A DNA stretch of 64,000 bases, from the IMG/VR virus record IMGVR_UViG_2529292922_000010; one strand, 5' to 3'. This document shows positions 3,228 to 39,645 of the stretch, one piece after another. The translations under genes were made by a program, and so were the position numbers. Position 1 is the first letter of the stretch. Each line of letters starts with the position of its first letter. This DNA is from a virus. Lineage: Duplodnaviria; Heunggongvirae; Uroviricota; Caudoviricetes. The notes beneath the pieces were generated by a model. It saw nothing but the letters and a program-made list of their open reading frames with translations, did not search any database and was not told the origin of the DNA.

Positions 3228-3800
3228 ATGCCTAATCGCATTCCTCTCGATCCTGTATTGCCCAAAAATTTTGACTGCACTCCTAACGAGAAACGCTCTA
3301 AAGCTCAGCTGGACGCCTGGTGGGACCATCCCTATGGGGTTACAGAACATGACGGGAAAATTGTTGTTTATTGTCTGAATGGTGGCGCGTGGGACCGTCC
3401 ATCCGTGCTGGGTTTGGCAAATAACTATGATGAAGCCTGTGAACTTGCCGAAAGACAGCAGGCTAGATGGGTAAAAACGCGGTCACAGCCGATATTTATG
3501 TACTCACAGGAACCTCCATTTGTGCTGGCGAGAATGCCGCAGCGACCGGATCATCAACAAGAAATTGTTGCTGAATTTTCCTCAATGGATGAGATGAATC
3601 TCTTCTCATTAAAGCAGGAAGAAAGGGATCGCGTCGAAGTGTCTCCAACTCTCGACCACAACCGGATGAACCTGGCCCAACTCGCCTGGTACAGCAAAGA
3701 ATTGGAGATGTCTATTGCCCGGCTTGAAAACGAAAAAGCCGCTATCCAAGCCCAGCATGAAGCTGTCATTGCCAGGATACGAGAAGTTCAAAACGGTTAA
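3228..3800 (+). CDS. Hypothetical protein, 190 aa, divergent from humD
   Basis: AAGGAA RBS; C-terminal coiled-coil-like segment; function unknown. Confidence 0.5.
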   Translation: MPNRIPLDPVLPKNFDCTPNEKRSKAQLDAWWDHPYGVTEHDGKIVVYCLNGGAWDRPSVLGLANNYDEACELAERQQARWVKTRSQPIFMYSQEPPFVLARMPQRPDHQQEIVAEFSSMDEMNLFSLKQEERDRVEVSPTLDHNRMNLAQLAWYSKELEMSIARLENEKAAIQAQHEAVIARIREVQNG

Positions 3801-3806
3801 CTACCG

Positions 3807-4058
3807 CTATTTCTTTACGGCATCATCTTTCTGATATGCCGGATCGCTCCCTTTTGGCAACTGGAGGCTTAACTGCCGGTAGTGTCGTAGCCGTTCCATG
3901 AAATAGGTGCGCAGATTCTCTGGTTGCTCGCGGGCTACCTGTTCAGCTATGACAGGTATGTTCAATCGCTCTTTGTACGCCACACCGCTGGCAGCCAGAT
4001 CAACGTTAACCTTATCCCGTTCTTCCTGACTTTTAGCTGCAATATTCCAGTCGCTCAT
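3807..4058 (-). CDS. hot: Homologue of DNA polymerase III theta subunit (HolE-like)
   Basis: 83 aa; [33 protein letters not shown] closely matches recalled E. coli HolE pattern. Confidence 0.8.
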
Positions 4059-4060
4059 AT

Positions 4061-4333
4061 TTAAGGCTCACATTTCCAGATGGTATTCTGAACACCCGAA
4101 CCGGGCGCTAGATGAGGGTTAGCGTTCGCGCTATGCTGATATACTGCTTTAGACTTCCCATATTGCTGACAGGCTTTATCTGCGGTTTTTTGCAGGCTAT
4201 CCAGGCCATACCAACCATCTGACTGTATGCTTACCTTTTCACCGTCGTTGTATTGCACCATTGCACACCCAGATATAGCCAGTATCGCGCCGACAATAAC
4301 GCTTTTCCATAAAACTCTATGCAACATAGACAA
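4061..4333 (-). CDS. Small lipoprotein, 90 aa
   Basis: Signal peptide with lipobox LAISGC. Confidence 0.5.
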
Positions 4334-4372
4334 AAATCCCCTCTGTGAATTGAGGGGATTTTAGCATGGTGA

Positions 4373-4633
4373 TCAGAGATCAGCTTTATGCAGAATTTTA
4401 TCCACCAGCGATGTGATTTTTTCTGCCAGGTCATCATTACTTACCCAATCCTGGCGGGCAGCCAGAACGGGCGACAAGGCTAATATTAACTCTCGTCGTA
4501 ATGATACGTTCCTTGCTACAGGCGGAATACGTGGTGCTGGTGGTGGTTTAAGCCCCTCGCTCCCTTGTATTTCTGGAGTATTCGGCTGATAGCCATTAGT
4601 TATTTTCGGCGGTATTGGACGAGGACGAAACAT
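4373..4633 (-). CDS. Pro-rich small protein, 86 aa
   Basis: ATG at 4633 with AGGAGG RBS 7 nt upstream; the longer track ORF (to 4753) lacks an RBS. Confidence 0.45.
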   Translation of the reverse strand: MFRPRPIPPKITNGYQPNTPEIQGSEGLKPPPAPRIPPVARNVSLRRELILALSPVLAARQDWVSNDDLAEKITSLVDKILHKADL

Positions 4634-4637
4634 CGCG

Positions 4638-4934
4638 CTACCTCCTACACTCAGGGCAGGTGTTCCCTTCCGCAAAGTAGGGGAAACTGCTATCAAGTTC
4701 ATCACACCATCTGCGATGCTCGTAGCACCAAAAAGCCTCCCACGGTAAACCAAAAGACTTCATCCACCGGGACACTCGATCTGGTATATCTGCTGGTGGC
4801 AGTTCTTCTGGCAATAATTTGCCTGATAATTCCCTTTCCGCCCGCGCCAGCATTCCTTTTAGACTCGCATTCTCTTTTTCAAGAATCTCTATGCGCGCCT
4901 GTAACTCAGCTTTCGTTGGCATGGCCCGCCTCAT
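4638..4934 (-). CDS. Hypothetical coiled-coil protein with C-terminal Cys cluster
   Basis: ELQARIEILEKENASLKGMLARAERE segment plus C...C...CPEC; start ambiguous (4922, 4934 or 5003). Confidence 0.4.
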   Translation of the reverse strand: MRRAMPTKAELQARIEILEKENASLKGMLARAERELSGKLLPEELPPADIPDRVSRWMKSFGLPWEAFWCYEHRRWCDELDSSFPYFAEGNTCPECRR

Positions 4935-5556
4935 GCTTATCAGCCACCAGCGGCAATAAAGCCCTGGCCATCTTATGAACCAATAGTGCATCAATAATGC
5001 CAAGCGTATGCCCCGGCTTAATGTTTAATGCCGCCTCAAGGTGACACCTTTCCAGGCCACTTTTCTCGGCTTGTTTATGATGATCTGGCGTAATAACGTC
5101 GCCCAAAACACGGCTAATTTTTTCTCGTAATTGCTGGGTGCCAGCACACTTGATCGCTGTATCGTGGATGCGGTTAACCAGTTCGCGATAAACATGCGGC
5201 TTAATTCGGATACGTTCACCGGTGACGCCCTTTCCTGGCGCTGGCACCGAACTATCCGGAATATCCGGATAGTTGCCAGCCTCGTAAGCTACCCGCAGCC
5301 AGTGCATGAATGTTTCAGTGGACACACAACCGCAGTCCACATCGATTTTCGCGCGTTGCTGTTCCAGCCACTGCTCAAAATTCAATCTACACGTATTACT
5401 TTCATGTTGCTCTTTTTGTCTCAAGGCCAGCATCTGCTGGGCTATTTCCAATACTTCATCTGCCGTATATCCAGCACCGTGACCATACATTTCGATACGG
5501 GAAATAATCTCTGATATACGCTCTTCAGTGATTCTGGTCATTTCTTTTTGCGCCAT
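4906..5556 (-). CDS. Hypothetical protein, 216 aa
   Basis: Long ORF; short overlaps with both neighbours indicate operon; no recognisable motif. Confidence 0.5.
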   Translation of the reverse strand: MAQKEMTRITEERISEIISRIEMYGHGAGYTADEVLEIAQQMLALRQKEQHESNTCRLNFEQWLEQQRAKIDVDCGCVSTETFMHWLRVAYEAGNYPDIPDSSVPAPGKGVTGERIRIKPHVYRELVNRIHDTAIKCAGTQQLREKISRVLGDVITPDHHKQAEKSGLERCHLEAALNIKPGHTLGIIDALLVHKMARALLPLVADKHEAGHANES

Positions 5557-6706: not shown

Positions 6707-7915
6707 TCATTGATTCACCTCCTGCGGCGGTTCTGGTAGCGGCATCCAGTGTGACGGTTTCCACGACGCACCAGGAATTATCCACCCATCATTAGCGTCA
6801 GGATGCCCCGGGATGTAAGTAGCCCATTTCATTCGCCAGTCACCTTTCCTGTCAAACTCCACGGCAACAAGAACGGCTGTTTTGGTATTCGGCATTCGCT
6901 CACTACAGCTTATCCAACCATCCGGAGTTACCGGAGAATTGCCATTTACCAAGTCAGCTCGAACATATAGCGTGTCATCATGGTGCTGATTGTGGCTGCA
7001 CCACGTTAATTCGCTTAACTCGCCATCTTCTGGCCATACTCCAGCTGTTTGCAGCCAGATATGGGCTGGCGCATCCTGGCAAGGTGTATTAACTGGAAAC
7101 TTGTAAGTTTGGCTTACAGGTTGGCTACCCTGAAGCATGGCAGCGTGGCAGGCATACTCAACGCCCTTAACTGCATCTGCGCAGTAGTTATAGCGATTGC
7201 ATTCCACTAATTTCCGTTTGAGTTTTTCAATTGCCTGCGCGACATCAGCCTGTATTACAGGAACTGGCGGAACGGCTGTTTGCTCTCGAACGTCATTAGT
7301 CGCTATCGGTTCTGCTGCCAACTGACTGGCATATTTGTTAATGGTAACGATAAGCTCTTGCTCAGCCTCATCCAGACAATCACCGATACCTCGCCTGTCA
7401 CCGTCAAAATCATCGAAATCAGCACGAATCTTGGCAACCTTCTGGATTGCGGACAACACCTCACTAGGAATTACCGGATAGTTGGTTGACGTTTCCGCGA
7501 TTTCCCGAAAATTATTGGTTGACGAATTCTTGTTTTCCCGAAAGTTTCCGGACTGAAGCATGGCGGCGCGGCAGGCGTTCCAGCCATCAACATAATCAAA
7601 CGTATTGCTATCGTCTGGCTCGATTTCATCCGGCACTACCGGCTCTGGTTGGATAGTGACGTTGGCAAAGGCAGCACGCAAACCGGCCTTAATTTCCTCT
7701 ACTTCATCAGCGCCTAGCGATGAATCTGACAATGCGTGATGGAATGCGTAAGCCATGTCGTCGTTTACTGCAACCGGTTCTGCTTCCAGCGATGCCAGAG
7801 CAATTCGTGCCAGTTCTTCCGCTTCTTCTGCTGGCAGTACAACGTTGCTACCAGGTCCGTATGTTTCGCGCCACTGCTTGATTGTCAGCAGTCGCTCTTT
7901 GGTAATAGTGGTCAT
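6707..7915 (-). CDS. Prophage protein with C-terminal DUF551-like domain, 402 aa
   Basis: C-terminal ~70 aa (DGWISCSERMPNTKTAVLV...HWMPLPEPP) fits the DUF551 pattern. Confidence 0.55.
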   Translation of the reverse strand: MTTITKERLLTIKQWRETYGPGSNVVLPAEEAEELARIALASLEAEPVAVNDDMAYAFHHALSDSSLGADEVEEIKAGLRAAFANVTIQPEPVVPDEIEPDDSNTFDYVDGWNACRAAMLQSGNFRENKNSSTNNFREIAETSTNYPVIPSEVLSAIQKVAKIRADFDDFDGDRRGIGDCLDEAEQELIVTINKYASQLAAEPIATNDVREQTAVPPVPVIQADVAQAIEKLKRKLVECNRYNYCADAVKGVEYACHAAMLQGSQPVSQTYKFPVNTPCQDAPAHIWLQTAGVWPEDGELSELTWCSHNQHHDDTLYVRADLVNGNSPVTPDGWISCSERMPNTKTAVLVAVEFDRKGDWRMKWATYIPGHPDANDGWIIPGASWKPSHWMPLPEPPQEVNQ

Positions 7916-27105: not shown

Positions 27106-27122
27106 ATTACACTAATAAATTT
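27106..27122 (+). promoter_or_regulatory. C1-repressor operator-like site (partner of overlapping pair)
   Basis: ATTACACTAATAAATTT (15/17); overlaps the minus-strand site by 6 bp. Confidence 0.5.
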
Positions 27123-27133
27123 ATTAGAGCAAT
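27117..27133 (-). promoter_or_regulatory. C1-repressor operator-like site, perfect consensus
   Basis: Minus strand ATTGCTCTAATAAATTT (17/17); overlaps dmt stop codon; faces the tRNA-ban block. Confidence 0.65.
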
Positions 27134-30449: not shown

Positions 30450-30798
30450 GTTGTAACCCTTGAATATCAACCACAGAAAGCTCGTCTTTGTAGAAAAAGG
30501 CCAGGTTGTGGCACCCCCTCGTTTGAGCGTATGAGCTGGGACCAATTTCGTTCTTCCAGACAAATGGCTTCAAATCCGTACGGCGAAGCATAAAAACGCG
30601 ATTTGTTCCGCTCTGATTCCCAATGAGGCAAAAGCCTTCTTTCACCTTGATAGCCTGCAAGTTGTCGAGTTCACCGCTGGTTACACGGCTATCGAACTCT
30701 TTGCGGCTTATTAGCTCCATCTGCATCTGACGACTCCAAACAAATGCCCATTGAAGGGCGATGGCTGAATGGTACCGAAAATACGACATAAAAAACAA
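30442..30798 (-). CDS. uhr: Hypothetical protein upstream of hrdC, 118 aa
   Basis: Stop overlaps hrdC start; operator overlaps its start codon; no RBS. Confidence 0.45.
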
Positions 30799-30895: not shown

Positions 30896-31180
30896 GTGGC
30901 AAGTATTGCAACAAAAGACAGCATTTGTTCGGGGCACGGAGGATTCCCATCCAGGCCTCCTGTAGAGAGTGAACCACTACTTAAAGTCAACGGAGTCGAA
31001 GTGTTAGTTGATGGTAAGCAATATGCACAGCATACCGATGGAAACAGTACGCACGGTGGGCAAGCTATATCAACCAGGGCATGGTTTACCGTCAATGGTA
31101 AAGGGATCGTATGCGTTGGTGACCCTGTTTCATGCGGATCTACCGTAGCGTCCGGAGACGGCCTGGTTCAGGTAAGTTAG
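30896..31180 (+). CDS. PAAR-like small Gly/Cys-rich protein, 94 aa
   Basis: GTG start; HGG...VNGKGI...VGDPVSCG pattern resembles PAAR spike-tip proteins; tentative. Confidence 0.4.
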   Translation: MASIATKDSICSGHGGFPSRPPVESEPLLKVNGVEVLVDGKQYAQHTDGNSTHGGQAISTRAWFTVNGKGIVCVGDPVSCGSTVASGDGLVQVS

Positions 31181-31188
31181 GAGATATC

Positions 31189-31977
31189 ATGCTGGAAAAA
31201 GACTACCAGTTATCCGCATATAAAAAATTGGCCGCCGCCGGTGGGATGAAAACACCTGGTGCCATAACATCGGCACGAAACAGTGCTAACACAGCAAAAC
31301 TGCTTGCAGAAGAATTGACCGGATTAATTCTGGATACAATTGTCTATCCCGACACTATTACCAGCTATGTTTCAACGATCAGAACAACCACAACCGGCTT
31401 AACGAACATTGGAGAACTGGCAACTAAGCACGCGGACCTGTTGGCTGGTTATGCAGATCTGTCAATGCTGCTTCAACTCGATATTGGTTGGGATGTTTAC
31501 TGCCGTGCTAATGAGCGAGAAGTATCAGAACTGCCGATCTCTATTGCCATTGGTGATGTGACTATTACTAAATCGCTTGAGGACGCTGTAAACGCGCTTA
31601 ATACATCAAGTTTAGTCGCTGCTATGGGGGAGATTAACCAGACCCTTAACACTGGCTCAGGAAGCTCGTCAGGCTCTGGTTCAGGCGGCGGCACTGCCAC
31701 TCCCCCACCAGCACTAACAGAAGAGCAAATTGAATCTCTGAAAGTAGCAACTGAACAGTTTGGGGTTGTATTCAACCAGACAACAGCGCCCACAACTGCG
31801 TTACAACAGCAGTATGAACGAGCGAATGAAAGCGCCAATGTAGCCATAACTGCTTATAACCATGCTATCGGTACTGCGCTTGCGGAAGCATCAGCAAATA
31901 AGGCCAGCACAGCCAGCGCAGTTGCTGCTTTGGTTCCTGATTCTGTTCTTGATGAATTAAACAAAGCGGCACAGTAA
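31189..31977 (+). CDS. Hypothetical protein with Ser/Gly-rich linker, 262 aa
   Basis: ATG 31189 with AGGAG RBS. Confidence 0.5.
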   Translation: MLEKDYQLSAYKKLAAAGGMKTPGAITSARNSANTAKLLAEELTGLILDTIVYPDTITSYVSTIRTTTTGLTNIGELATKHADLLAGYADLSMLLQLDIGWDVYCRANEREVSELPISIAIGDVTITKSLEDAVNALNTSSLVAAMGEINQTLNTGSGSSSGSGSGGGTATPPPALTEEQIESLKVATEQFGVVFNQTTAPTTALQQQYERANESANVAITAYNHAIGTALAEASANKASTASAVAALVPDSVLDELNKAAQ

Positions 31978-32016
31978 CAAAGGACTTCATTGATAATTTT
32001 TCTTCAGGAGGAAGAC

Positions 32017-32439
32017 ATGTCATTCTTTTCTACGTTAAAAACAGCTTTGTCTTTGAAGGAGAAACTTGCTGCTACTGGTGTTCTTGTTCTGATTTGCGCA
32101 CTTGTTGGTGCTGGGTTTGCATGGGAACGTCATCAGCTAAAGCAAGCCATCGAGAAAATTGGCAGTCTTGATCAGGCTGTTAAGGAACGTGATAAGTCAA
32201 TAATGGATCTTAACCAGACCATTGAGACGATGAACAAAGCAGAGCAACATTTTCACAGCCAGGAAGTGAAAAATGAATCAGAACAAGCCAAATATGCTGA
32301 CAGGCAAATGGAACGAAAAGCTGAAGTTCAGAAACAACTGGTTGCGGCGGGTAATGTTCGCCAGCGCATTCCTGCTGACACTCAGCGGTTGCTCCGGGAG
32401 TCGATCAGCGAATTTAACGCCGACGCCGACAAAGGTTAA
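32017..32439 (+). CDS. i-spanin (Rz)-like protein, 141 aa
   Basis: AGGAGG RBS; N-terminal TM helix then coiled coil. Confidence 0.45.
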   Translation: MSFFSTLKTALSLKEKLAATGVLVLICALVGAGFAWERHQLKQAIEKIGSLDQAVKERDKSIMDLNQTIETMNKAEQHFHSQEVKNESEQAKYADRQMERKAEVQKQLVAAGNVRQRIPADTQRLLRESISEFNADADKG

Positions 32440-32605
32440 CCACCCTGCCCCCAAAAGTGCATTTATGTGCAGAATGCCAGAGTTTAGCAGTGAATATTTC
32501 GATGATCTGCCAGCGTATATCCTCGATACAGAAACGATGCTGATGGGGATTAACAGGAAGAATCGCAACGTTAATGATTACAACCGCGCTATCAGCGGTA
32601 ACTAA
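32294..32605 (+). CDS. o-spanin (Rz1)-like lipoprotein, overlapping frame
   Basis: Signal peptide with lipobox LTLSGC; starts inside and ends beyond the Rz-like gene. Confidence 0.4.
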   Translation: MLTGKWNEKLKFRNNWLRRVMFASAFLLTLSGCSGSRSANLTPTPTKVNHPAPKSAFMCRMPEFSSEYFDDLPAYILDTETMLMGINRKNRNVNDYNRAISGN

Positions 32606-32616
32606 AAGGGATTTTT

Positions 32617-33009
32617 ATGTCTGATAAAGTAACAGTAAAGCAAACTATCAACAAAGCGACTTCAATCTACAAAATTGAGCACATCACTGTTGGCAAGCCA
32701 GGATCTGAACAATACCGTCATGCTTTCGAGCTTGCCGCTCAGCTTGGTTTAAAACACCCGGATTGCATTGAGCATGTATTTCCGACCTATGCTGATGAGC
32801 AATGTACTCATGTTCTTACCGAAGAGGATTTTTTCAGCACTGAAGAACGAGAAGGCGTTGATCGCTGCATTGGTGTGATTTGCTCTTCAGTGAGTTATGA
32901 GTTATTCCCTAATGTCCATGAAAATGGTGGTATTGGATACCAATTCCTGTACGAAGGCGATGAGCTTAAATGTTATGAACATGGTCTTCTTATCGAAAGC
33001 GTAGAATAA
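32617..33009 (+). CDS. Hypothetical protein, 130 aa
   Basis: ORF with RBS. Confidence 0.5.
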   Translation: MSDKVTVKQTINKATSIYKIEHITVGKPGSEQYRHAFELAAQLGLKHPDCIEHVFPTYADEQCTHVLTEEDFFSTEEREGVDRCIGVICSSVSYELFPNVHENGGIGYQFLYEGDELKCYEHGLLIESVE

Positions 33010-33022
33010 TACCCTTCCTTCC

Positions 33023-33047
33023 AACCGGCTATGTTGGCCGGTTTATT
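33023..33047 (+). terminator. Rho-independent terminator-like hairpin
   Basis: AACCGGC-loop-GCCGGTT then TTTATT. Confidence 0.5.
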
Positions 33048-33051
33048 CAAC

Positions 33052-33060
33052 TTATCCACA
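33052..33060 (+). promoter_or_regulatory. DnaA box at plasmid origin
   Basis: TTATCCACA, exact consensus. Confidence 0.65.
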
Positions 33061-33065
33061 GCATA

Positions 33066-33159
33066 GATCCAATAAACAGATCCCAAAGAGAACCTAGGAA
33101 GATCCAAAGAAGATCCCGGATCGCTGTAAGCCGCGCCGTTCATGGCCTGAAACGGGATC
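33066..33159. promoter_or_regulatory. Cluster of five GATC (Dam) sites at origin
   Basis: GATC at 33066, 33079, 33101, 33112, 33156, mostly in AGATCC context. Confidence 0.6.
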
Positions 33160-33163
33160 AACA

Positions 33164-33268
33164 TTGACTATACGCGATTTTATGTTGACTGTGTGCGATT
33201 TTATGTTGACTGCACGCGATTTATTGTTGACTATACGCGACAGAAACGTTGACTGTACGCGATTTTAG
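33164..33268 (+). promoter_or_regulatory. Five direct 21-bp iterons upstream of repA (incC-like)
   Basis: TTGACTRYRYGCGA at 33164, 33185, 33206, 33227, 33249. Confidence 0.75.
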
Positions 33269-33343
33269 AGCCTGAATATTCACAGCTGTTGATAACAGTC
33301 ATCTAAATTAACGCCAGGCCGCGCCACACATGGAGAAACCACG

Positions 33344-34228
33344 ATGCCGGAAGAAAGTAAAGGCTTCCTTAGCGTTGAAGAAGTTGCAGGAAATACAGGA
33401 GAAATCCACAGCCTGAAGCCCAATAACAACAGCACTATACAACCTATCGCTTTGTTGCGCTTAGGTGTGTTTGTGCCAACCTTAAAATCTACCAATGTGG
33501 CACTACGTCGCGGATCGTCAGTTACTACAAACACAACGAACGCAACCGAAGAACTATCAAGCCTTAAAATTGTTGAGCAGGAAGGCTATGAGGGAATTGA
33601 AATTCATGGCCCACGCCTGGATATGGATACTGATTTTAAGGTGTGGGTGGGCATAACCTCCGCGTTGTTTGACTACGCACCTGATGATGACGGCATAATC
33701 ACCCTGCCATTCTCCGAGTTTGCCGATCGATGCGGCTATCCACGTAAGCGCCTTTCAAAGGCGTTCCGTAAAAGTATTGATGACTCTCTGACACGCATTC
33801 AGCAGACAGTTGTCAAATTCCGCTTCCCGGCGGCAAAAGGTCATCTCAATAACATTAACGTCAACTTGTTGGCATATAGCAGCCTGAATACCGAGCTTGA
33901 TGTTATCGAGATCCAGCCGCAGAAACAGCTATCTGAACTTTACTATGTTGACTATAAGCGAATCCTGAAGCTGAAGATGCTGGATAAGCTCGGGCGCAAA
34001 GAGACGGCCAAGGTACTGTATACATTCTTTGAGGCTCTACCCGCCAACCCGGCACCTGTCAGCATTGAGCGCCTTAGAGCAAGGCTTAATCTCAAATCAT
34101 CCGTTAGCGTGCAAAATAGCGTTATCAGAAAAGCCATGAAAGATTTGGAAGCTATTGAATATCTTAAATTTTCAGAGATAAAAAACGGCAGGAAAATCGG
34201 CTTCCAGATCCATAAGCGCAATCCATAA
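33344..34228 (+). CDS. repA: Iteron-binding replication initiator
   Basis: 294 aa; flanked by direct iterons upstream and bidirectional iterons downstream; GGAGAAA RBS. Confidence 0.8.
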   Translation: MPEESKGFLSVEEVAGNTGEIHSLKPNNNSTIQPIALLRLGVFVPTLKSTNVALRRGSSVTTNTTNATEELSSLKIVEQEGYEGIEIHGPRLDMDTDFKVWVGITSALFDYAPDDDGIITLPFSEFADRCGYPRKRLSKAFRKSIDDSLTRIQQTVVKFRFPAAKGHLNNINVNLLAYSSLNTELDVIEIQPQKQLSELYYVDYKRILKLKMLDKLGRKETAKVLYTFFEALPANPAPVSIERLRARLNLKSSVSVQNSVIRKAMKDLEAIEYLKFSEIKNGRKIGFQIHKRNP

Positions 34229-34230
34229 TA

Positions 34231-34495
34231 TTGACTATATGCGATAGCGAGAAGTTGACTATAGGCGACATTCGTTGACGCTGGTGGATTTTTGCTGGCG
34301 TCAATATTCTGCAAGTCGCTATTGAGATGGCTTTTAGGGTCATTTCATCGCGTATAGTCAACGTTTCTCCCGACAATATCTTACATAGTCGATCTTTGGT
34401 GGAGTTAAATCGACTACAGTCAACTTTTGACTGTAGTCACATCGCGCATAGTCAACTATTCACATTAACTTTCGCGTATAGTCAACATTTGCGCG
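34231..34495. promoter_or_regulatory. Downstream iteron array, both orientations (incA-like copy control)
   Basis: At least 7 copies of TTGACTRTAGKCGA at 34231, 34255, 34348(rev), 34410(rev), 34427, 34443(rev), 34482(rev). Confidence 0.7.
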
Positions 34496-34520
34496 GTTCT
34501 CATCAAGCAGTGGTATTGAT

Positions 34521-35330
34521 ATGCAAGAAGAGAAACAACACTACCTCTACGTTCTGGTGCCGGAGAATGGAGATACTTTTAAAATCGGCATTTCATGTGG
34601 TCCATTGGCACGGTTTAAAGGGCTACAAGTGAGTCCCGATTTTGCGCTTTCACGGGTCTATCGTGGTACGCGTTTGGCAATAGTTAATCTTGAGCGGGCT
34701 TTACACGCAACCTTTTTCCCCTGGAATGCGCCGTGGGAGAAAAGCGCTGGTGGCGGGCATACTGAATGGTTTACACGAGAGTGTCTTGATAAGGTTTTGG
34801 CTCATATCGAATATCTAAATGATATGTGGGGAGGGATTCTCGAGCGCATTAAGTCGAATGATTTACTTCAGCGTCCAGTAGATGCTGCCCGCTCTTTCGA
34901 AAAAGAGCTGGATGTTACTTCTATCGTGACTTTCAAAGATGACGCAGGAATGAGGGACGTGGCTTATGTCTCCATATCTGGCTATGAACCGGACGCGATC
35001 CGCGCTCAATGTGAATTGCTGAAAGCAATGTTTATGCTTCGGACTAAATATTCCTGGGAGACAAGGCGGGTGTGCTTCCCTATGGAAGAGTTAACCGCCA
35101 CCATTGATTCCCAGCTTTACCACGATAATCCAGAGAAGTTTTTTAGCCTTTTAGCCGGTAATGGGCTTAACTGTGTGTCCGGGCTGGGGCGAAGTAGAAT
35201 CCAACATGCCTCGCTCTTCGGTCCCTTCTTTTACGATCGACACGGGTACTTTGAGGCTGAACTTCCGGCGCTTACGCGTGCCATAGATACTATCGATTTC
35301 GAACGATTATTCGCTGCTCTTAGCAAATAA
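34521..35330 (+). CDS. GIY-YIG-like (T5orf172-type) domain protein, 269 aa
   Basis: N-terminal YLYVLVPENGDTFKIGIS...EWF; own terminator; sits between iteron array and parA promoter. Confidence 0.5.
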   Translation: MQEEKQHYLYVLVPENGDTFKIGISCGPLARFKGLQVSPDFALSRVYRGTRLAIVNLERALHATFFPWNAPWEKSAGGGHTEWFTRECLDKVLAHIEYLNDMWGGILERIKSNDLLQRPVDAARSFEKELDVTSIVTFKDDAGMRDVAYVSISGYEPDAIRAQCELLKAMFMLRTKYSWETRRVCFPMEELTATIDSQLYHDNPEKFFSLLAGNGLNCVSGLGRSRIQHASLFGPFFYDRHGYFEAELPALTRAIDTIDFERLFAALSK

Positions 35331-35337
35331 CACTGAT

Positions 35338-35358
35338 GCCCCTGAACGGGGCTTTTTT
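35338..35358 (+). terminator. Rho-independent terminator
   Basis: GCCCC-TGAAC-GGGGC followed by T6. Confidence 0.7.
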
Positions 35359-35445
35359 GTGCCCTCCTTGTAACTCTCAATCGTGCAAAATGAACCAAAC
35401 ATGCAGAGAATGCTATGTACAAGCATCTGTGCATACATTATTATT

Positions 35446-35485
35446 TTATGCAGCATTTTTAATTAAATTCAAAAATACAGCATAA
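35446..35485. promoter_or_regulatory. Imperfect 15-bp inverted repeat upstream of parA (candidate par operator)
   Basis: TTATGCAGCATTTTT ... AAAAATACAGCATAA. Confidence 0.4.
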
Positions 35486-35498
35486 AGGATGGCTTTCG

Positions 35499-36695
35499 AT
35501 GAGTGATTCCAGCCAGCTTCACAAGGTTGCTCAAAGAGCAAACAGAATGCTCAATGTTCTGACTGAACAAGTACAGTTGCAAAAGGATGAGCTACACGCG
35601 AACGAGTTTTACCAGGTCTATGCGAAAGCGGCACTGGCAAAATTGCCTCTACTGACTCGAGCGAACGTTGACTATGCCGTGAGTGAAATGGAAGAAAAGG
35701 GTTATGTTTTCGATAAACGCCCTGCTGGCTCTTCAATGAAATATGCGATGTCAATTCAGAACATCATTGACATATATGAACATCGCGGAGTGCCAAAATA
35801 CCGGGATCGCTACAGCGAAGCGTATGTGATTTTCATCTCCAATCTTAAAGGCGGTGTGTCAAAAACTGTATCGACGGTTTCTCTGGCGCATGCAATGCGT
35901 GCTCACCCTCATCTTCTGATGGAAGATTTAAGGATTCTGGTTATTGACCTTGATCCGCAATCTTCAGCAACGATGTTTTTAAGCCATAAACACTCTATTG
36001 GTATCGTAAACGCAACATCTGCACAGGCTATGTTGCAGAATGTAAGCCGTGAAGAGCTGTTAGAGGAGTTTATTGTTCCTTCTGTTGTACCTGGGGTTGA
36101 CGTTATGCCTGCGTCGATTGACGATGCCTTTATTGCATCCGATTGGAGAGAGCTGTGCAATGAGCATCTACCGGGTCAAAACATCCATGCAGTCCTGAAA
36201 GAAAATGTGATTGATAAGCTGAAGAGCGATTATGACTTTATCCTCGTTGATAGTGGTCCTCACCTTGACGCCTTCCTGAAAAATGCTTTGGCCTCGGCCA
36301 ATATACTGTTTACACCTCTGCCGCCTGCAACGGTTGATTTCCACTCATCGCTTAAATACGTTGCCCGCCTTCCTGAGTTGGTAAAACTCATTTCGGATGA
36401 AGGCTGCGAGTGCCAGCTTGCGACTAACATTGGTTTTATGTCCAAGTTGAGTAACAAGGCAGACCATAAGTATTGCCATAGCCTGGCTAAAGAAGTGTTC
36501 GGTGGGGATATGCTTGATGTCGTCCTCCCTCGCCTTGACGGTTTTGAACGCTGCGGCGAGTCTTTTGACACTGTTATTTCAGCTAACCCGGCAACGTATG
36601 TTGGTAGTGCTGATGCATTGAAGAACGCGCGAATTGCCGCGGAAGATTTTGCTAAAGCAGTTTTTGACCGTATTGAATTTATCAGATCTAACTGA
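35499..36695 (+). CDS. parA: Type Ia partition ATPase ParA
   Basis: 398 aa (P1 ParA length); Walker A KGGVSKT; long N-terminal HTH extension. Confidence 0.9.
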   Translation: MSDSSQLHKVAQRANRMLNVLTEQVQLQKDELHANEFYQVYAKAALAKLPLLTRANVDYAVSEMEEKGYVFDKRPAGSSMKYAMSIQNIIDIYEHRGVPKYRDRYSEAYVIFISNLKGGVSKTVSTVSLAHAMRAHPHLLMEDLRILVIDLDPQSSATMFLSHKHSIGIVNATSAQAMLQNVSREELLEEFIVPSVVPGVDVMPASIDDAFIASDWRELCNEHLPGQNIHAVLKENVIDKLKSDYDFILVDSGPHLDAFLKNALASANILFTPLPPATVDFHSSLKYVARLPELVKLISDEGCECQLATNIGFMSKLSNKADHKYCHSLAKEVFGGDMLDVVLPRLDGFERCGESFDTVISANPATYVGSADALKNARIAAEDFAKAVFDRIEFIRSN

Positions 36696-36711
36696 GGAGT
36701 AAGAAACCCCC

Positions 36712-37713
36712 ATGTCAAAGAAAAACAGACCAACAATTGGGCGAACCCTTAATCCTTCAATATTAAGCGGATTTGATAGTTCTTCAGCCTCTGGCGATCG
36801 AGTCGAGCAGGTATTCAAGTTATCAACTGGTCGCCAGGCCACATTTATTGAAGAGGTAATACCTCCGAACCAGGTAGAAAGCGATACCTTTGTTGATCAG
36901 CATAACAACGGGCGTGACCAGGCATCTCTTACGCCAAAATCATTAAAAAGTATCCGAAGCACTATTAAGCATCAGCAATTTTACCCTGCAATAGGTGTTA
37001 GACGGGCTACAGGGAAAATTGAAATTTTGGATGGTTCCCGGCGTCGAGCTTCTGCCATCTTAGAGAACGTAGGGTTGCGGGTTTTAGTCACGGACCAGGA
37101 GATCAGCGTTCAGGAAGCGCAAAATTTAGCGAAAGACGTTCAGACAGCATTGCAGCACAGCATTCGAGAAATAGGTCTGCGTTTGATGCGAATGAAAAAT
37201 GATGGGATGAGTCAGAAGGATATTGCAGCCAAAGAAGGGCTGTCTCAGGCGAAGGTCACGCGTGCTCTCCAGGCAGCGAGTGCTCCGGAAGAATTAGTTG
37301 CCCTTTTCCCTGTGCAGTCGGAATTAACCTTTTCGGACTACAAAACGCTTTGTGCTGTTGGCGACGAAATGGGGAACAAGAATTTAGAGTTTGATCAGCT
37401 TATTCAAAACATATCCCCGGAAATAAACGACATCTTATCCATTGAAGAAATGGCCGAAGATGAAGTTAAAAATAAAATCCTGCGCTTGATAACAAAGGAA
37501 GCCTCACTACTCACGGATAAAGGTTCTAAAGATAAGTCCGTAGTTACTGAATTATGGAAATTTGAGGACAAGGATCGCTTTGCAAGGAAGCGCGTGAAAG
37601 GCCGTGCATTTTCTTATGAGTTTAATCGACTTTCAAAAGAGCTACAGGAAGAACTCGACAGGATGATTGGGCATATCCTTAGAAAGAGCCTCGATAAAAA
37701 GCCGAAGCCTTAA
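36712..37713 (+). CDS. parB: Partition protein ParB
   Basis: 333 aa (P1 ParB length); parS follows. Confidence 0.9.
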   Translation: MSKKNRPTIGRTLNPSILSGFDSSSASGDRVEQVFKLSTGRQATFIEEVIPPNQVESDTFVDQHNNGRDQASLTPKSLKSIRSTIKHQQFYPAIGVRRATGKIEILDGSRRRASAILENVGLRVLVTDQEISVQEAQNLAKDVQTALQHSIREIGLRLMRMKNDGMSQKDIAAKEGLSQAKVTRALQAASAPEELVALFPVQSELTFSDYKTLCAVGDEMGNKNLEFDQLIQNISPEINDILSIEEMAEDEVKNKILRLITKEASLLTDKGSKDKSVVTELWKFEDKDRFARKRVKGRAFSYEFNRLSKELQEELDRMIGHILRKSLDKKPKP

Positions 37714-37717
37714 ACTT

Positions 37718-37801
37718 TCGCCATTCAAATTTCACTATTAACCTACTGTTTTTAAAGTAAATCCATCTAAAATTTCAAGGTGAAATCGCCACGATTTCAC
37801 C
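37718..37801. promoter_or_regulatory. parS partition site
   Basis: Box B TCGCCA (37718, 37786) and box A ATTTCAC/GTGAAAT (37729, 37780, 37794) flanking an AT-rich spacer. Confidence 0.75.
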
Positions 37802-37938
37802 TTGGATTTTACCTTCCTCCCCTACTCACGAAAAAAATAAAAAAATTGCTTGTCACGAGAAAGTCAACAAGTGACTTTCAATAAAATCTCTTCCGAAAAG
37901 GGATTCACACAAGTGCCTTGTGTTTAAGGAAGAGTAAA

Positions 37939-39645
37939 TTGAGTAACTTACGCGAATACCAGAATCGTATTGCAGATATCGCAAAACGCTCTAAAGCTGT
38001 GCTTGGCTGGGCAAGCACTGCGCAGTTCGGTACTGATAACCAATTCATTAAAGATGATGCCGCGCGTGCCGCATCTATCCTTGAAGCTGCACGTAAAGAC
38101 CCGGTTTTTGCGGGTATCTCTGATAATGCCACCGCTCAAATCGCTACAGCGTGGGCAAGTGCACTGGCTGACTACGCCGCAGCACATAAATCTATGCCGC
38201 GTCCGGAAATTCTGGCCTCCTGCCACCAGACGCTGGAAAACTGCCTGATTGAGTCCACCCGCAATAGCATGGATGCCACTAATAAAGCGATGCTGGAGTC
38301 CGTCGCAGCAGAGATGATGAGCGTTTCTGACGGTGTTATGCGTCTGCCTTTATTCCTCGCGATGATCCTGCCTGTTCAGTTGGGGGCAGCTACCGCTGAT
38401 GCGTGTACCTTCATTCCGGTTACGCGTGACCAGTCCGACATCTATGAAGTCTTTAACGTGGCAGGTTCCTCTTTTGGTTCTTATGCTGCTGGTGATGTTC
38501 TGGACATGCAATCCGTCGGTGTGTACAGCCAGTTACGTCGCCGCTATGTGCTGGTGGCAAGCTCCGATGGCACTAGCAAAACCGCAACCTTCAAGATGGA
38601 AGACTTCGAAGGCCAGAATGTACCAATCCGAAAAGGTCGCACTAACATCTACGTTAACCGTATTAAGTCTGTTGTTGATAACGGTTCCGGCAGCCTACTT
38701 CACTCGTTTACTAATGCTGCTGGTGAGCAAATCACTGTTACCTGCTCTCTGAACTACAACATTGGTCAGATTGCCCTGTCGTTCTCCAAAGCGCCGGATA
38801 AAGGCACTGAGATCGCAATTGAGACGGAAATCAATATTGAAGCCGCTCCTGAGCTGATCCCGCTGATCAACCACGAAATGAAGAAATACACCCTGTTCCC
38901 AAGTCAGTTCGTTATCGCGGCTGAGCACACGGTACAGGCGGCGTATGAAGCACAGCGTGAATTTGGTCTGGACCTGGGTTCCCTACAGTTCCGCACCCTG
39001 AAGGAATACCTGTCTCATGAACAGGATATGCTACGTCTTCGCATCATGATCTGGCGCACTCTTGCGACCGACACCTTTGACATCGCTCTGCCGGTTAACC
39101 AGTCCTTTGATGTATGGGCAACCATCATTCGTGGCAAATTCCAGACTGTATATCGCGACATTATTGAGCGCGTTAAATCTTCTGGTGCGATGGGGATGTT
39201 TGCTGGTGCTGATGCAGCATCTTTCTTCAAACAGTTGCCGAAGGATTTCTTCCAGCCAGCCGAAGACTATATCCAGACTCCGTATGTTCACTACATCGGT
39301 ACCCTGTTCGGTAACGTGAAAGTGTACGAAGTACCTGCTGGTATTTGTAAGAACTTAACGACAGAGAACATTCAGTTCAGCTCGATGGATGTGCTGTGCT
39401 ACGTCCGTGATGAAAATCCGGGTAAAGCAGGCTTCGTGACTGGTGATGCTGTCCCGGCCATCCCGTTCCAGCATCCGACCACTCCGGCGCTGGTCAACCG
39501 TACCACGCTGTGGGGTTCGGCTATCAATGATATGCACCCACGCAACGGCGCTGATTACTTCACTCGTGTAACGCTGACAATGGCCAAAAAAGGCGGGCTT
39601 AACTTCATAAGCGGCGACACGATTGATGCCGGTGACTCTGAGTAA
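37939..39645 (+). CDS. Large virion structural protein (major head or sheath candidate)
   Basis: 569 aa from TTG 37939 with AAGGAAG RBS; first gene after parS; track ORF begins at 37918. Confidence 0.5.
   Translation: MSNLREYQNRIADIAKRSKAVLGWASTAQFGTDNQFIKDDAARAASILEAARKDPVFAGISDNATAQIATAWASALADYAAAHKSMPRPEILASCHQTLENCLIESTRNSMDATNKAMLESVAAEMMSVSDGVMRLPLFLAMILPVQLGAATADACTFIPVTRDQSDIYEVFNVAGSSFGSYAAGDVLDMQSVGVYSQLRRRYVLVASSDGTSKTATFKMEDFEGQNVPIRKGRTNIYVNRIKSVVDNGSGSLLHSFTNAAGEQITVTCSLNYNIGQIALSFSKAPDKGTEIAIETEINIEAAPELIPLINHEMKKYTLFPSQFVIAAEHTVQAAYEAQREFGLDLGSLQFRTLKEYLSHEQDMLRLRIMIWRTLATDTFDIALPVNQSFDVWATIIRGKFQTVYRDIIERVKSSGAMGMFAGADAASFFKQLPKDFFQPAEDYIQTPYVHYIGTLFGNVKVYEVPAGICKNLTTENIQFSSMDVLCYVRDENPGKAGFVTGDAVPAIPFQHPTTPALVNRTTLWGSAINDMHPRNGADYFTRVTLTMAKKGGLNFISGDTIDAGDSE

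Follow-up and report, generated by a model that had tools for sequence, protein, structure and literature searches.

A fast-evolving T5orf172 nuclease-type gene carried in the exchangeable replicon cassette of P1-like phage-plasmids

The 64,000 nt of virus record IMGVR_UViG_2529292922_000010 (IMG/VR; Caudoviricetes) analysed here, referred to as the window, belong to a P1-like phage-plasmid of the RCS47/SJ46 type with a p0111 replicon. Between the iterons that follow repA and the promoter of the parA-parB operon (Ppar) lies an open reading frame (ORF) for a protein of 269 amino acids (aa), at 34521-35330 on the plus strand with an ATG start. The ORF is a genuine nuclease-type gene of the T5orf172/GIY-YIG superfamily. 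It is exchanged between P1-like elements as part of the replicon cassette, is dispensable, and evolves fast. Most likely it is a DNA-targeting weapon or selfish nuclease that is long-standing in the cassette and not a recent mobile insertion. Tentatively, we read it as the gene of a sequence-directed endonuclease, a dispensable passenger of the cassette in conflicts between mobile elements, which would act either in a homing-like way or in the manner of Odn, the origin-directed nuclease of vibriophage ICP1.

The N-terminal domain (residues 1-101; 34521-34823, plus strand) carries the family assignment. The Pfam family T5orf172 (PF10544) matches residues 8-85 with E=7.6e-6 and 26.8 bits, above the curated gathering cut-off of 20; the matches to MUG113 and Tox-URI2, of the same clan, are weaker and below threshold. 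PHROG 2876, a family of unknown function, covers the full length of the ORF and PHROG 681, annotated as 'endonuclease', its N-terminus, and RefSeq names the product a 'GIY-YIG nuclease family protein'. Within an alignment of 24 homologues, Y10, K21-I-G23, R31 and E82-W-F are invariant, as are E58 and H62, and the residues of the catalytic motif, E58 and H62 are also invariant in the four full-length variants described below. The ORF product is predicted to have the alpha/beta fold of GIY-YIG proteins. The original prediction, made from the letters of the sequence, had put a 269-aa ORF into the gap between the post-repA iterons and Ppar, quoted the segments YLYVL, FKIGIS and EWF, and proposed a GIY-YIG-like (T5orf172) identity that a hidden Markov model search should reveal. 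Position, motifs and identity all hold, and its remark that T5orf172 genes are typically homing or conflict nucleases agrees with the literature (PMC10448857, PMC8263062).

Canonical P1 (NC_005856, locus L001) was compared with the window by blastn. Homology is found at 31000-33137 (94.4% identity) and 35397-38000 (99.1%), with only a weak 59-bp patch between them. It breaks at 33137/33138 and at 35396/35397, and 2259 bp of the window stand in place of 1500 bp of P1. The left break falls within oriR, between the shared part with the DnaA boxes and GATC sites and the first iteron, and the right break falls 66 bp past the stop codon of the ORF and 19 bp before the -35 element of Ppar. The swapped unit is a replicon cassette of the p0111/SJ46 type (33138-35396, plus strand), which replaces incC-repA-incA of P1 and comprises iterons, repA, iterons, ORF and terminator as one block. 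Because P1 homology breaks around this whole replicon block and not around the ORF, the ORF is not a simple insertion. The model of a simple insertion was rejected on the same ground and because the repeat search found no direct repeats bracketing the ORF, which also answers the proposed check for a short target duplication. A discrete mobile insertion into the replicon-partition junction, as first suggested, is thus not borne out. The block has been replaced whole, with a RepA only 42% identical to that of P1, and homologues in the same slot of divergent P1-like elements with other replicon types oppose an insertion as well. Identity to P1 is lower on the left of the cassette (94.4%, upfC to upfA with the left part of oriR) than on its right (99.1%, Ppar-parAB onward), a difference that could stem from separate recombination histories of the two flanks.

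The contrast that had been drawn with the layout of P1 is correct. There, about 190 bp separate the end of incA from Ppar, and no gene is annotated in this interval; the ORF is absent from this junction, and P1 carries about 210 bp of unrelated non-coding DNA where the window carries the ORF. No remnant of the ORF was found in the incA-Ppar gap of P1, where tblastn matches of the four variants did not rise above noise (E at least 0.4).

An exhaustive HMMER search of 1.84 billion representative proteins returned 82 at E<=0.001. The only full-length match outside the 90%-identity cluster of the ORF is P0004, with 44% identity; P0010 and P0011 are full-length homologues by alignment, and the other matches cover the N-terminal 100 residues or so only. 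The three full-length homologues occupy the interval from repA to parA on other P1-like backbones, P0004 on L004, P0010 on L005 and L006, and P0011 on L007. The full-length family occurs only in P1-like elements, where it occupies one slot behind three replicon types: SJ46 (the window and L004), P1 (L005 and L006) and a third (L007). L004 shares the iteron consensus of the window and has an SJ46-type RepA, 84% identical to that of the window; in L005, which carries a variant of the ORF, both RepA (83% identical to that of P1) and the iterons are of P1 type; the RepA of L007 is 44-49% identical to the IncY and p0111 RepA proteins and its iterons read GGCTACTGnATGCTAC. L007 is a contig of Logan assembly SRR12532267 with a P1-like backbone, a divergent ParA (401 aa, 57% identical) and a ParB of 321 aa (43%), and its replicon (3800-5100) seems to fall outside the two types, IncY and p0111, listed in PMC9603915.

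Exchange of the same block is seen again within this wider group. The neighbouring proteins of L004 and L005 are 98-99.7% identical, and the two elements differ precisely in the block of iterons, repA, iterons and ORF, where each carries a different ORF variant. The breakpoints, at 6830/9020 in L004 and 6655/8945 in L005, are of the same kind of boundary as those between the window and P1 and lie about 60-85 bp beyond the stop codon. The ORF thus sits at the boundary of a recombinational exchange, the location expected of a homing gene. A phage-plasmid outside the P1 group, L003 (NZ_CP085065.1, 5022-6312), has an SJ46-type replicon with a RepA 85% identical to that of the window and a complete iteron set (five direct, then two direct and four inverted), and lacks the ORF. 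Since L003 shares its replicon type with the P1-like window, the replicon moves between families of phage-plasmids. L003 also carries transglycosylase and tail genes.

Among close relatives the picture is uniform. The whole block is present at >95% identity in 391 PLSDB plasmids, out of about 400 records that carry the replicon, from Escherichia, Salmonella, Shigella and a few Klebsiella. Using the ORF protein as a tblastn query, 402 plasmid records were found, essentially the set that carries the replicon; all but one match at at least 90% identity, the exception being a 34% match to the N-terminal domain in Cupriavidus. Of 5426 complete Escherichia coli genomes, 412 contain the ORF, in 414 plasmid places and 7 chromosomal ones. 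The seven chromosomal copies, e.g. hit H209 (NZ_CP093011.1, 4393179-4394084), suggest integrated P1-like elements or assembly artefacts. A presence/absence polymorphism at the junction, which had been proposed as a check, was not seen among the roughly 400 close relatives and appears at depth only, between P1 and L005 and between the window and L003. Universal presence in relatives, named beforehand as a refutation of the insertion idea, thus applies within the p0111 lineage and not across the family.

Polymorphism was assessed in 48 near-identical copies drawn from IMG/VR, GTDB, phage and plasmid records. The ratio of nonsynonymous to synonymous nucleotide diversity (piN/piS) is 0.315 for the ORF, with amino-acid-changing polymorphism at 38 of its 269 codons and 26 distinct proteins. 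For repA the ratio is 0.022 (4 of 294 codons, 5 distinct proteins) and for parA 0.001 (1 of 398 codons, 2 distinct proteins). About 17% of the sampled copies of the ORF are disrupted, those of SJ46 and seven others being truncated or interrupted, and about 83% keep the 269-codon frame. Premature stops occur at codon 68 (one copy), codon 112 (five IMG/VR contigs) and codon 228 (SJ46, two records of one phage), and one copy (L056) is interrupted after nt 294 by foreign DNA (TGTGACTGCTCCCCGCCC...), possibly the end of an insertion sequence; neither repA nor parA has a premature stop in the 48 copies. Annotations of a 'hypothetical protein' beside the GIY-YIG gene were left out of the count of disrupted copies, as they may represent a spurious ORF and not a split gene. 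Independent inactivating changes were noted in L012 (SJ46, KU760857.1, 1501-2310), L050, L021, L022, L024, L025, L027, L053 and L056. The protein database holds many further alleles, differently truncated, on long contigs, e.g. the 134-aa fragment BAI39254.1 of the p0111 prototype.

A core component would be present and intact wherever the replicon works; P1 and L003 are without the ORF, and SJ46 has a truncated copy. For the phage-plasmid SJ46, the blaCTX-M-27 plasmid is reported from parental strains as well as from transformants (PMC5241659). From its absence in P1 and L003 together with the disrupted copies it follows that the ORF is not needed for replication or partition. It is dispensable and fast-evolving. 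In most lineages purifying selection still acts on it to some degree, and variants only 25-44% identical retain both the frame and the catalytic residues.

The C-terminal domain (residues 102-269 and the stop codon; 34824-35330, plus strand) is the variable half. The four full-length variants align end to end, with 35-64% identity in the N-terminal domain and only 20-31% in the C-terminal one. The C-terminal domains of the window and L004 are 31.5% identical despite the shared iteron consensus, so that this domain is not simply tracking its own iterons; the pattern is compatible with targeting of rival DNA or with relaxed constraint. The AlphaFold2 model of the whole protein has two domains and a predicted local distance difference test score (pLDDT) of 83.9. 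The best structural matches of the C-terminal domain, 6h24, 2z9o, 1hkq, 5ubf and 2nra, are winged-helix domains of iteron-binding replication initiators. In a Foldseek search of this domain against PDB, 6h24 ranks top (probability 0.98, E 0.011), with RctB, RepE54 and SLX1 next and none at E<=0.001. The domain is accordingly predicted to be a winged helix that resembles the WH1 domain of Rep initiators, a consistent but weak lead. At the level of sequence, hhalign finds no similarity to RepA proteins of the P1 family (probability 0.2%), the Pfam search of the ORF gives no match to Rep_3 or RepA_N, and the exhaustive HMMER search finds no homologue of the domain outside P1-like elements. The C-terminal domain as a sequence relative of RepA was therefore rejected on the hhalign negative; sequence searches of PDB returned only 1ywl.

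How the gene may be expressed is suggested by its position. The last inverted iteron ends 30 nt before the ATG in the window, and in all four variants the start codon follows 20-30 nt after it. As this leaves no room for a separate promoter, read-through, or initiation within the RepA-bound iteron array, is probable. This arrangement suggests that expression of the ORF may be influenced by RepA occupancy. A sigma-70 promoter of its own was considered and discarded, the only candidate by eye being TATAGT within the last inverted iteron, with no good -35. Control by the C1 repressor was likewise rejected: the C1 operator nearest to the ORF, at 30798, is about 3.7 kb away. Using the operator consensus ATTGCTCTAATAAATTT with at most 3 mismatches, ten matches are found in the window between 718 and 47434, where 0.29 are expected by chance, none of them close to the nuclease gene or the replicon; two of the ten overlap at 27106-27133, a 2-mismatch site on the plus strand and a perfect one on the minus strand. 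The location of the ORF in the plasmid-maintenance region fits expression in the prophage-plasmid state.

Taken as a sequence-directed endonuclease of the cassette, the ORF could work as follows. The N-terminal T5orf172 domain would be the catalytic half of a two-domain DNA endonuclease, and the rapidly diversifying C-terminal domain, if a winged helix, would pick the DNA target. The gene would be a passenger at the right-hand edge of the cassette, with no part in the replication machinery, and its expression would be tied to RepA occupancy of the adjacent iteron array. P1-like phage-plasmids would exchange the cassette by recombination in the conserved flanks, i.e. the left part of oriR and Ppar. 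A related element that lacks the gene, or that has a rival cassette, may then be cut when it is co-resident in the cell. Either the rival would be destroyed, or repair would copy the nuclease gene together with the linked replicon, a homing-like co-conversion by a 'nuclease at a boundary of genetic exchange'. Domain identity, conserved catalytic motifs, the structure of the cassette, confinement to P1-like elements, dispensability and fast evolution are observed here; that the protein cleaves DNA, what it would target and how it would be regulated are inferences.

Several results weigh against an endonuclease in element conflict. The ORF matches no NCBIfam family, and PADLOC-DB v2 gives no families at E<=1 for the ORF of the window or the L004 variant, so that a known defence system or NCBIfam family was rejected as its identity. 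Searching PDB by sequence, whether with the one protein or with its profile, yielded nothing beyond a marginal GIY-YIG match (the same 1ywl, E 0.23). The winged-helix assignment comes from a model on a shallow alignment with weak scores. The gap in P1 (5827-6037) bears no relation to the flanks of the ORF and allows no cleavage target to be inferred. No consensus sigma-70 promoter was found in the scan of the plus strand from repA to the ORF. The ORF is fixed and not sporadic in about 400 close plasmids, unlike an actively homing gene, which could reflect linkage to repA alone. Finally, a piN/piS of 0.3 with recurrent truncation could mean a decaying gene of little present function.

T5orf172 genes are known as homing endonucleases that cluster beside essential genes and border the blocks that phages exchange (PMC10448857). 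Odn (gp88) of ICP1 combines a T5orf172 nuclease with a RepA-derived DNA-binding domain and cleaves the PLE satellite at its iterated origin, which has been proposed to select for the exchange of replicon modules; T5orf172 genes can thus be domesticated as origin-directed nucleases (PMC8263062). Odn-like genes are also found in coliphages Inny, Muut and Mt1B1_P17 (PMC8263062, PMC10448857).

Set against these phage systems, the ORF shows features of each. With the free-standing T5orf172/GIY-YIG homing genes of phages (homing endonuclease genes of ICP1; Seg proteins of T4) it shares the catalytic family, an intergenic slot beside the essential repA and parA, a place at the edge of a block exchanged between near-identical genomes, a variable DNA-binding half and frequent inactivation. 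Unlike them it is not sporadic among close relatives, and its C-terminal domain is not among the zinc-finger modules (CapR, DUF723, DUF4397) reported for T5orf172 homing endonuclease genes. Like Odn, it is a gene of a mobile element in which a T5orf172 domain is fused to a second domain, here possibly initiator-like, at the level of fold only, and is associated with swapped initiator and iteron modules. The differences are considerable. The targeting domain of Odn is a RepA_N domain with clear similarity to the RepA of its victim, whereas the ORF has no targeting domain with sequence homology to the origin-binding domain of an initiator, and its fold match, with weak scores, is to a Rep_3-type WH1. 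The order of domains is also reversed (the nuclease is N-terminal in the ORF, while the catalytic Glu of Odn is E180), and the ORF lies within a replicon cassette beside its own iterons, Odn in an anti-satellite locus of a lytic phage. SLX1/UvrC-type GIY-YIG nucleases are more distant still, with 11-16% identity, other partner domains and unrelated biology.

An origin-directed nuclease like Odn is the more specific form that the proposed endonuclease might take. A C-terminal domain mimicking WH1 would aim the T5orf172 domain at the iterated origin of a rival, whether a P1-like replicon of another type or a different iteron plasmid or satellite, and so drive cassette swaps. In favour of this, the gene lies directly beside the iterons and moves together with repA, and Odn provides the precedent of a T5orf172 domain joined to a Rep DNA-binding domain that cuts at iterons, with relatives in coliphages too. 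With no similarity to any Rep by hhalign, Pfam or HMMER, with winged helices being common folds, and with C-terminal domains so different between the window and L004 at one and the same iteron consensus, this form is unlikely, if worth keeping in view. A further extension is a step more doubtful. In it, each P1-like replicon cassette would have its own origin-directed nuclease, whose WH1-like domain guides the T5orf172 domain to rival iterons or RepA-DNA complexes under RepA-gated expression, and the swapping of IncY, p0111 and third-type cassettes would be a nuclease-driven incompatibility arms race. About as doubtful is a role as defence cargo against phages or plasmids, in which a stand-alone GIY-YIG nuclease guards the lysogen and is merely lodged in a permissive intergenic slot. 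Phage-plasmids do carry variable accessory and defence genes, fast evolution and frequent loss would suit such a gene, and distant relatives of the N-terminal domain occur in mobile-element or defence-like neighbourhoods: L009 near Mrr_cat and WYL genes, L008 in a prophage-like region with repressor-type helix-turn-helix genes, and L010 with a plasmid relaxase and umuDC. However, no PADLOC model matches, the family has a single slot in a single family of elements where defence genes typically occur in many contexts, and the ORF is always exchanged together with repA. The distant homologues themselves (P0012, P0013 and P0017), not being beside rep or par genes, were set aside as a functional lead.

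Improbable, for its part, is a decaying relic, a former homing endonuclease gene now functionless and kept by tight linkage to repA and par. The recurrent truncations, the raised piN/piS, and fixation with no sign of mobility among close relatives are what a relic would show, but the ratio is well below 1, most copies keep the full frame, the catalytic residues are invariant across variants of 25-44% identity, and the frame has been kept in four deeply diverged lineages. Least probable of all is an accessory of replication or copy control belonging to the cassette, e.g. a WH1-like heterodimer partner of RepA or a processor of origin DNA. It would account for a position beside incA-type iterons conserved in four variants, for a predicted fold resembling Rep WH1 and for co-inheritance with repA. 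Yet P1 and L003 replicate without the ORF, the SJ46 plasmid with its stop at codon 228 is still reported in parental strains and transformants, about 17% of copies are disrupted, and constraint on the ORF is about 15-300 times weaker than on repA and parA.

The remaining features of the region conform to the general plan of a P1 replicon. Shared with P1 are the DnaA-box/GATC part of oriR, the origin iterons, a Rep_3-type repA, the post-repA iterons and Ppar-parAB; RepA, as noted, is only 42% identical, the iteron sequence is different, and the nuclease gene takes the place of the non-coding DNA. Five direct origin iterons of consensus TGTTGACTATACGCGA, spaced at 21-22 bp, lie at 33162-33262 (plus strand; repeat search) as the counterpart of incC. 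They are followed by repA (33344-34228, plus strand), which encodes a Rep_3-type initiator of 294 aa by Pfam (Rep3_C, E=4.4e-6; Rep3_N, E=2.4e-4) and PHROG 775. The post-repA array, counterpart of incA, was delimited at 34229-34490 by a repeat search for direct and inverted families and holds two direct iterons (34229-34268) and four inverted ones (34348-34490). The ORF has a terminator of its own, as had been proposed: an intrinsic terminator at 35338-35358 (plus strand), GCCCC-loop-GGGGC and then a T run, with an all-GC stem of 5 bp (hairpin 35338-35352) followed by TTTTTTGT and an RNA fold of -11.9 kcal/mol (z=-2.55). Ppar was located by promoter scan at 35416-35444 (plus strand) and aligns to the annotated Ppar of P1 (L001, 6017-6045). 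The P1-type parA-parB operon occupies 35499-37713 (plus strand), with a ParA 99.7% and a ParB 100% identical to the P1 proteins. The coding sequence of parA is identical to that of RCS47; the SJ46 paper describes the partition proteins of RCS47 and SJ46 as identical to those of P7 and distant from P1 (PMC5241659), which conflicts with the ParA and ParB sequences of the window. Over the whole of 33300-37800, identity is 99.5% to phage RCS47 and about 99% to several others, SJ46 and JL22 among them.

Two further ORFs called mechanically are probably spurious. One, at 34327-34632 on the plus strand (101 aa), overlaps the iteron array and the start of the nuclease ORF and may be what some RefSeq records list as a 'hypothetical protein' next to the GIY-YIG gene. 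The other, at 35231-35434 on the minus strand (67 aa), overlaps the 3' end of the nuclease ORF and the terminator. The MOB-suite typing in PLSDB of the p0111-type plasmids L011 (NZ_CP043272.1) and L013 (NZ_CP134391.1) as 'IncHI1B' looks like a mis-typing of RepA.

The existence of the gene and its co-occurrence with p0111 repA are already known. It has been described as 'an unknown protein-encoding gene' accompanying p0111 repA (PMC9603915), and in pSvP1 '2 orfs inserted between repA and parA' were reported (PMC6906374); the cassette swap agrees with two published descriptions, PMC6906374 among them. What appears to be new is the restriction to P1-like elements, the single slot behind three replicon types with exchange at fixed breakpoints together with the replicon, the fast evolution and frequent loss, and an orphan C-terminal domain whose fold may be like that of Rep WH1.

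P1-like phage-plasmids commonly carry extended-spectrum beta-lactamase and mcr genes, and the ORF is present in about one in 13 complete E. coli genomes. If it were only a decaying passenger, the finding would be an ordinary one. If it is an active, target-specific and replicon-linked nuclease, it would explain why different P1-like lineages swap whole cassettes at the same breakpoints, could bear on which plasmids and phage-plasmids are able to coexist, and would extend the concepts of Odn and of the 'nuclease at exchange boundaries' from lytic phages and satellites to plasmid replicons. Should the origin-directed reading prove true, the ORF would represent plasmid-borne incompatibility by DNA destruction, in about 7.6% of complete E. 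coli genomes.

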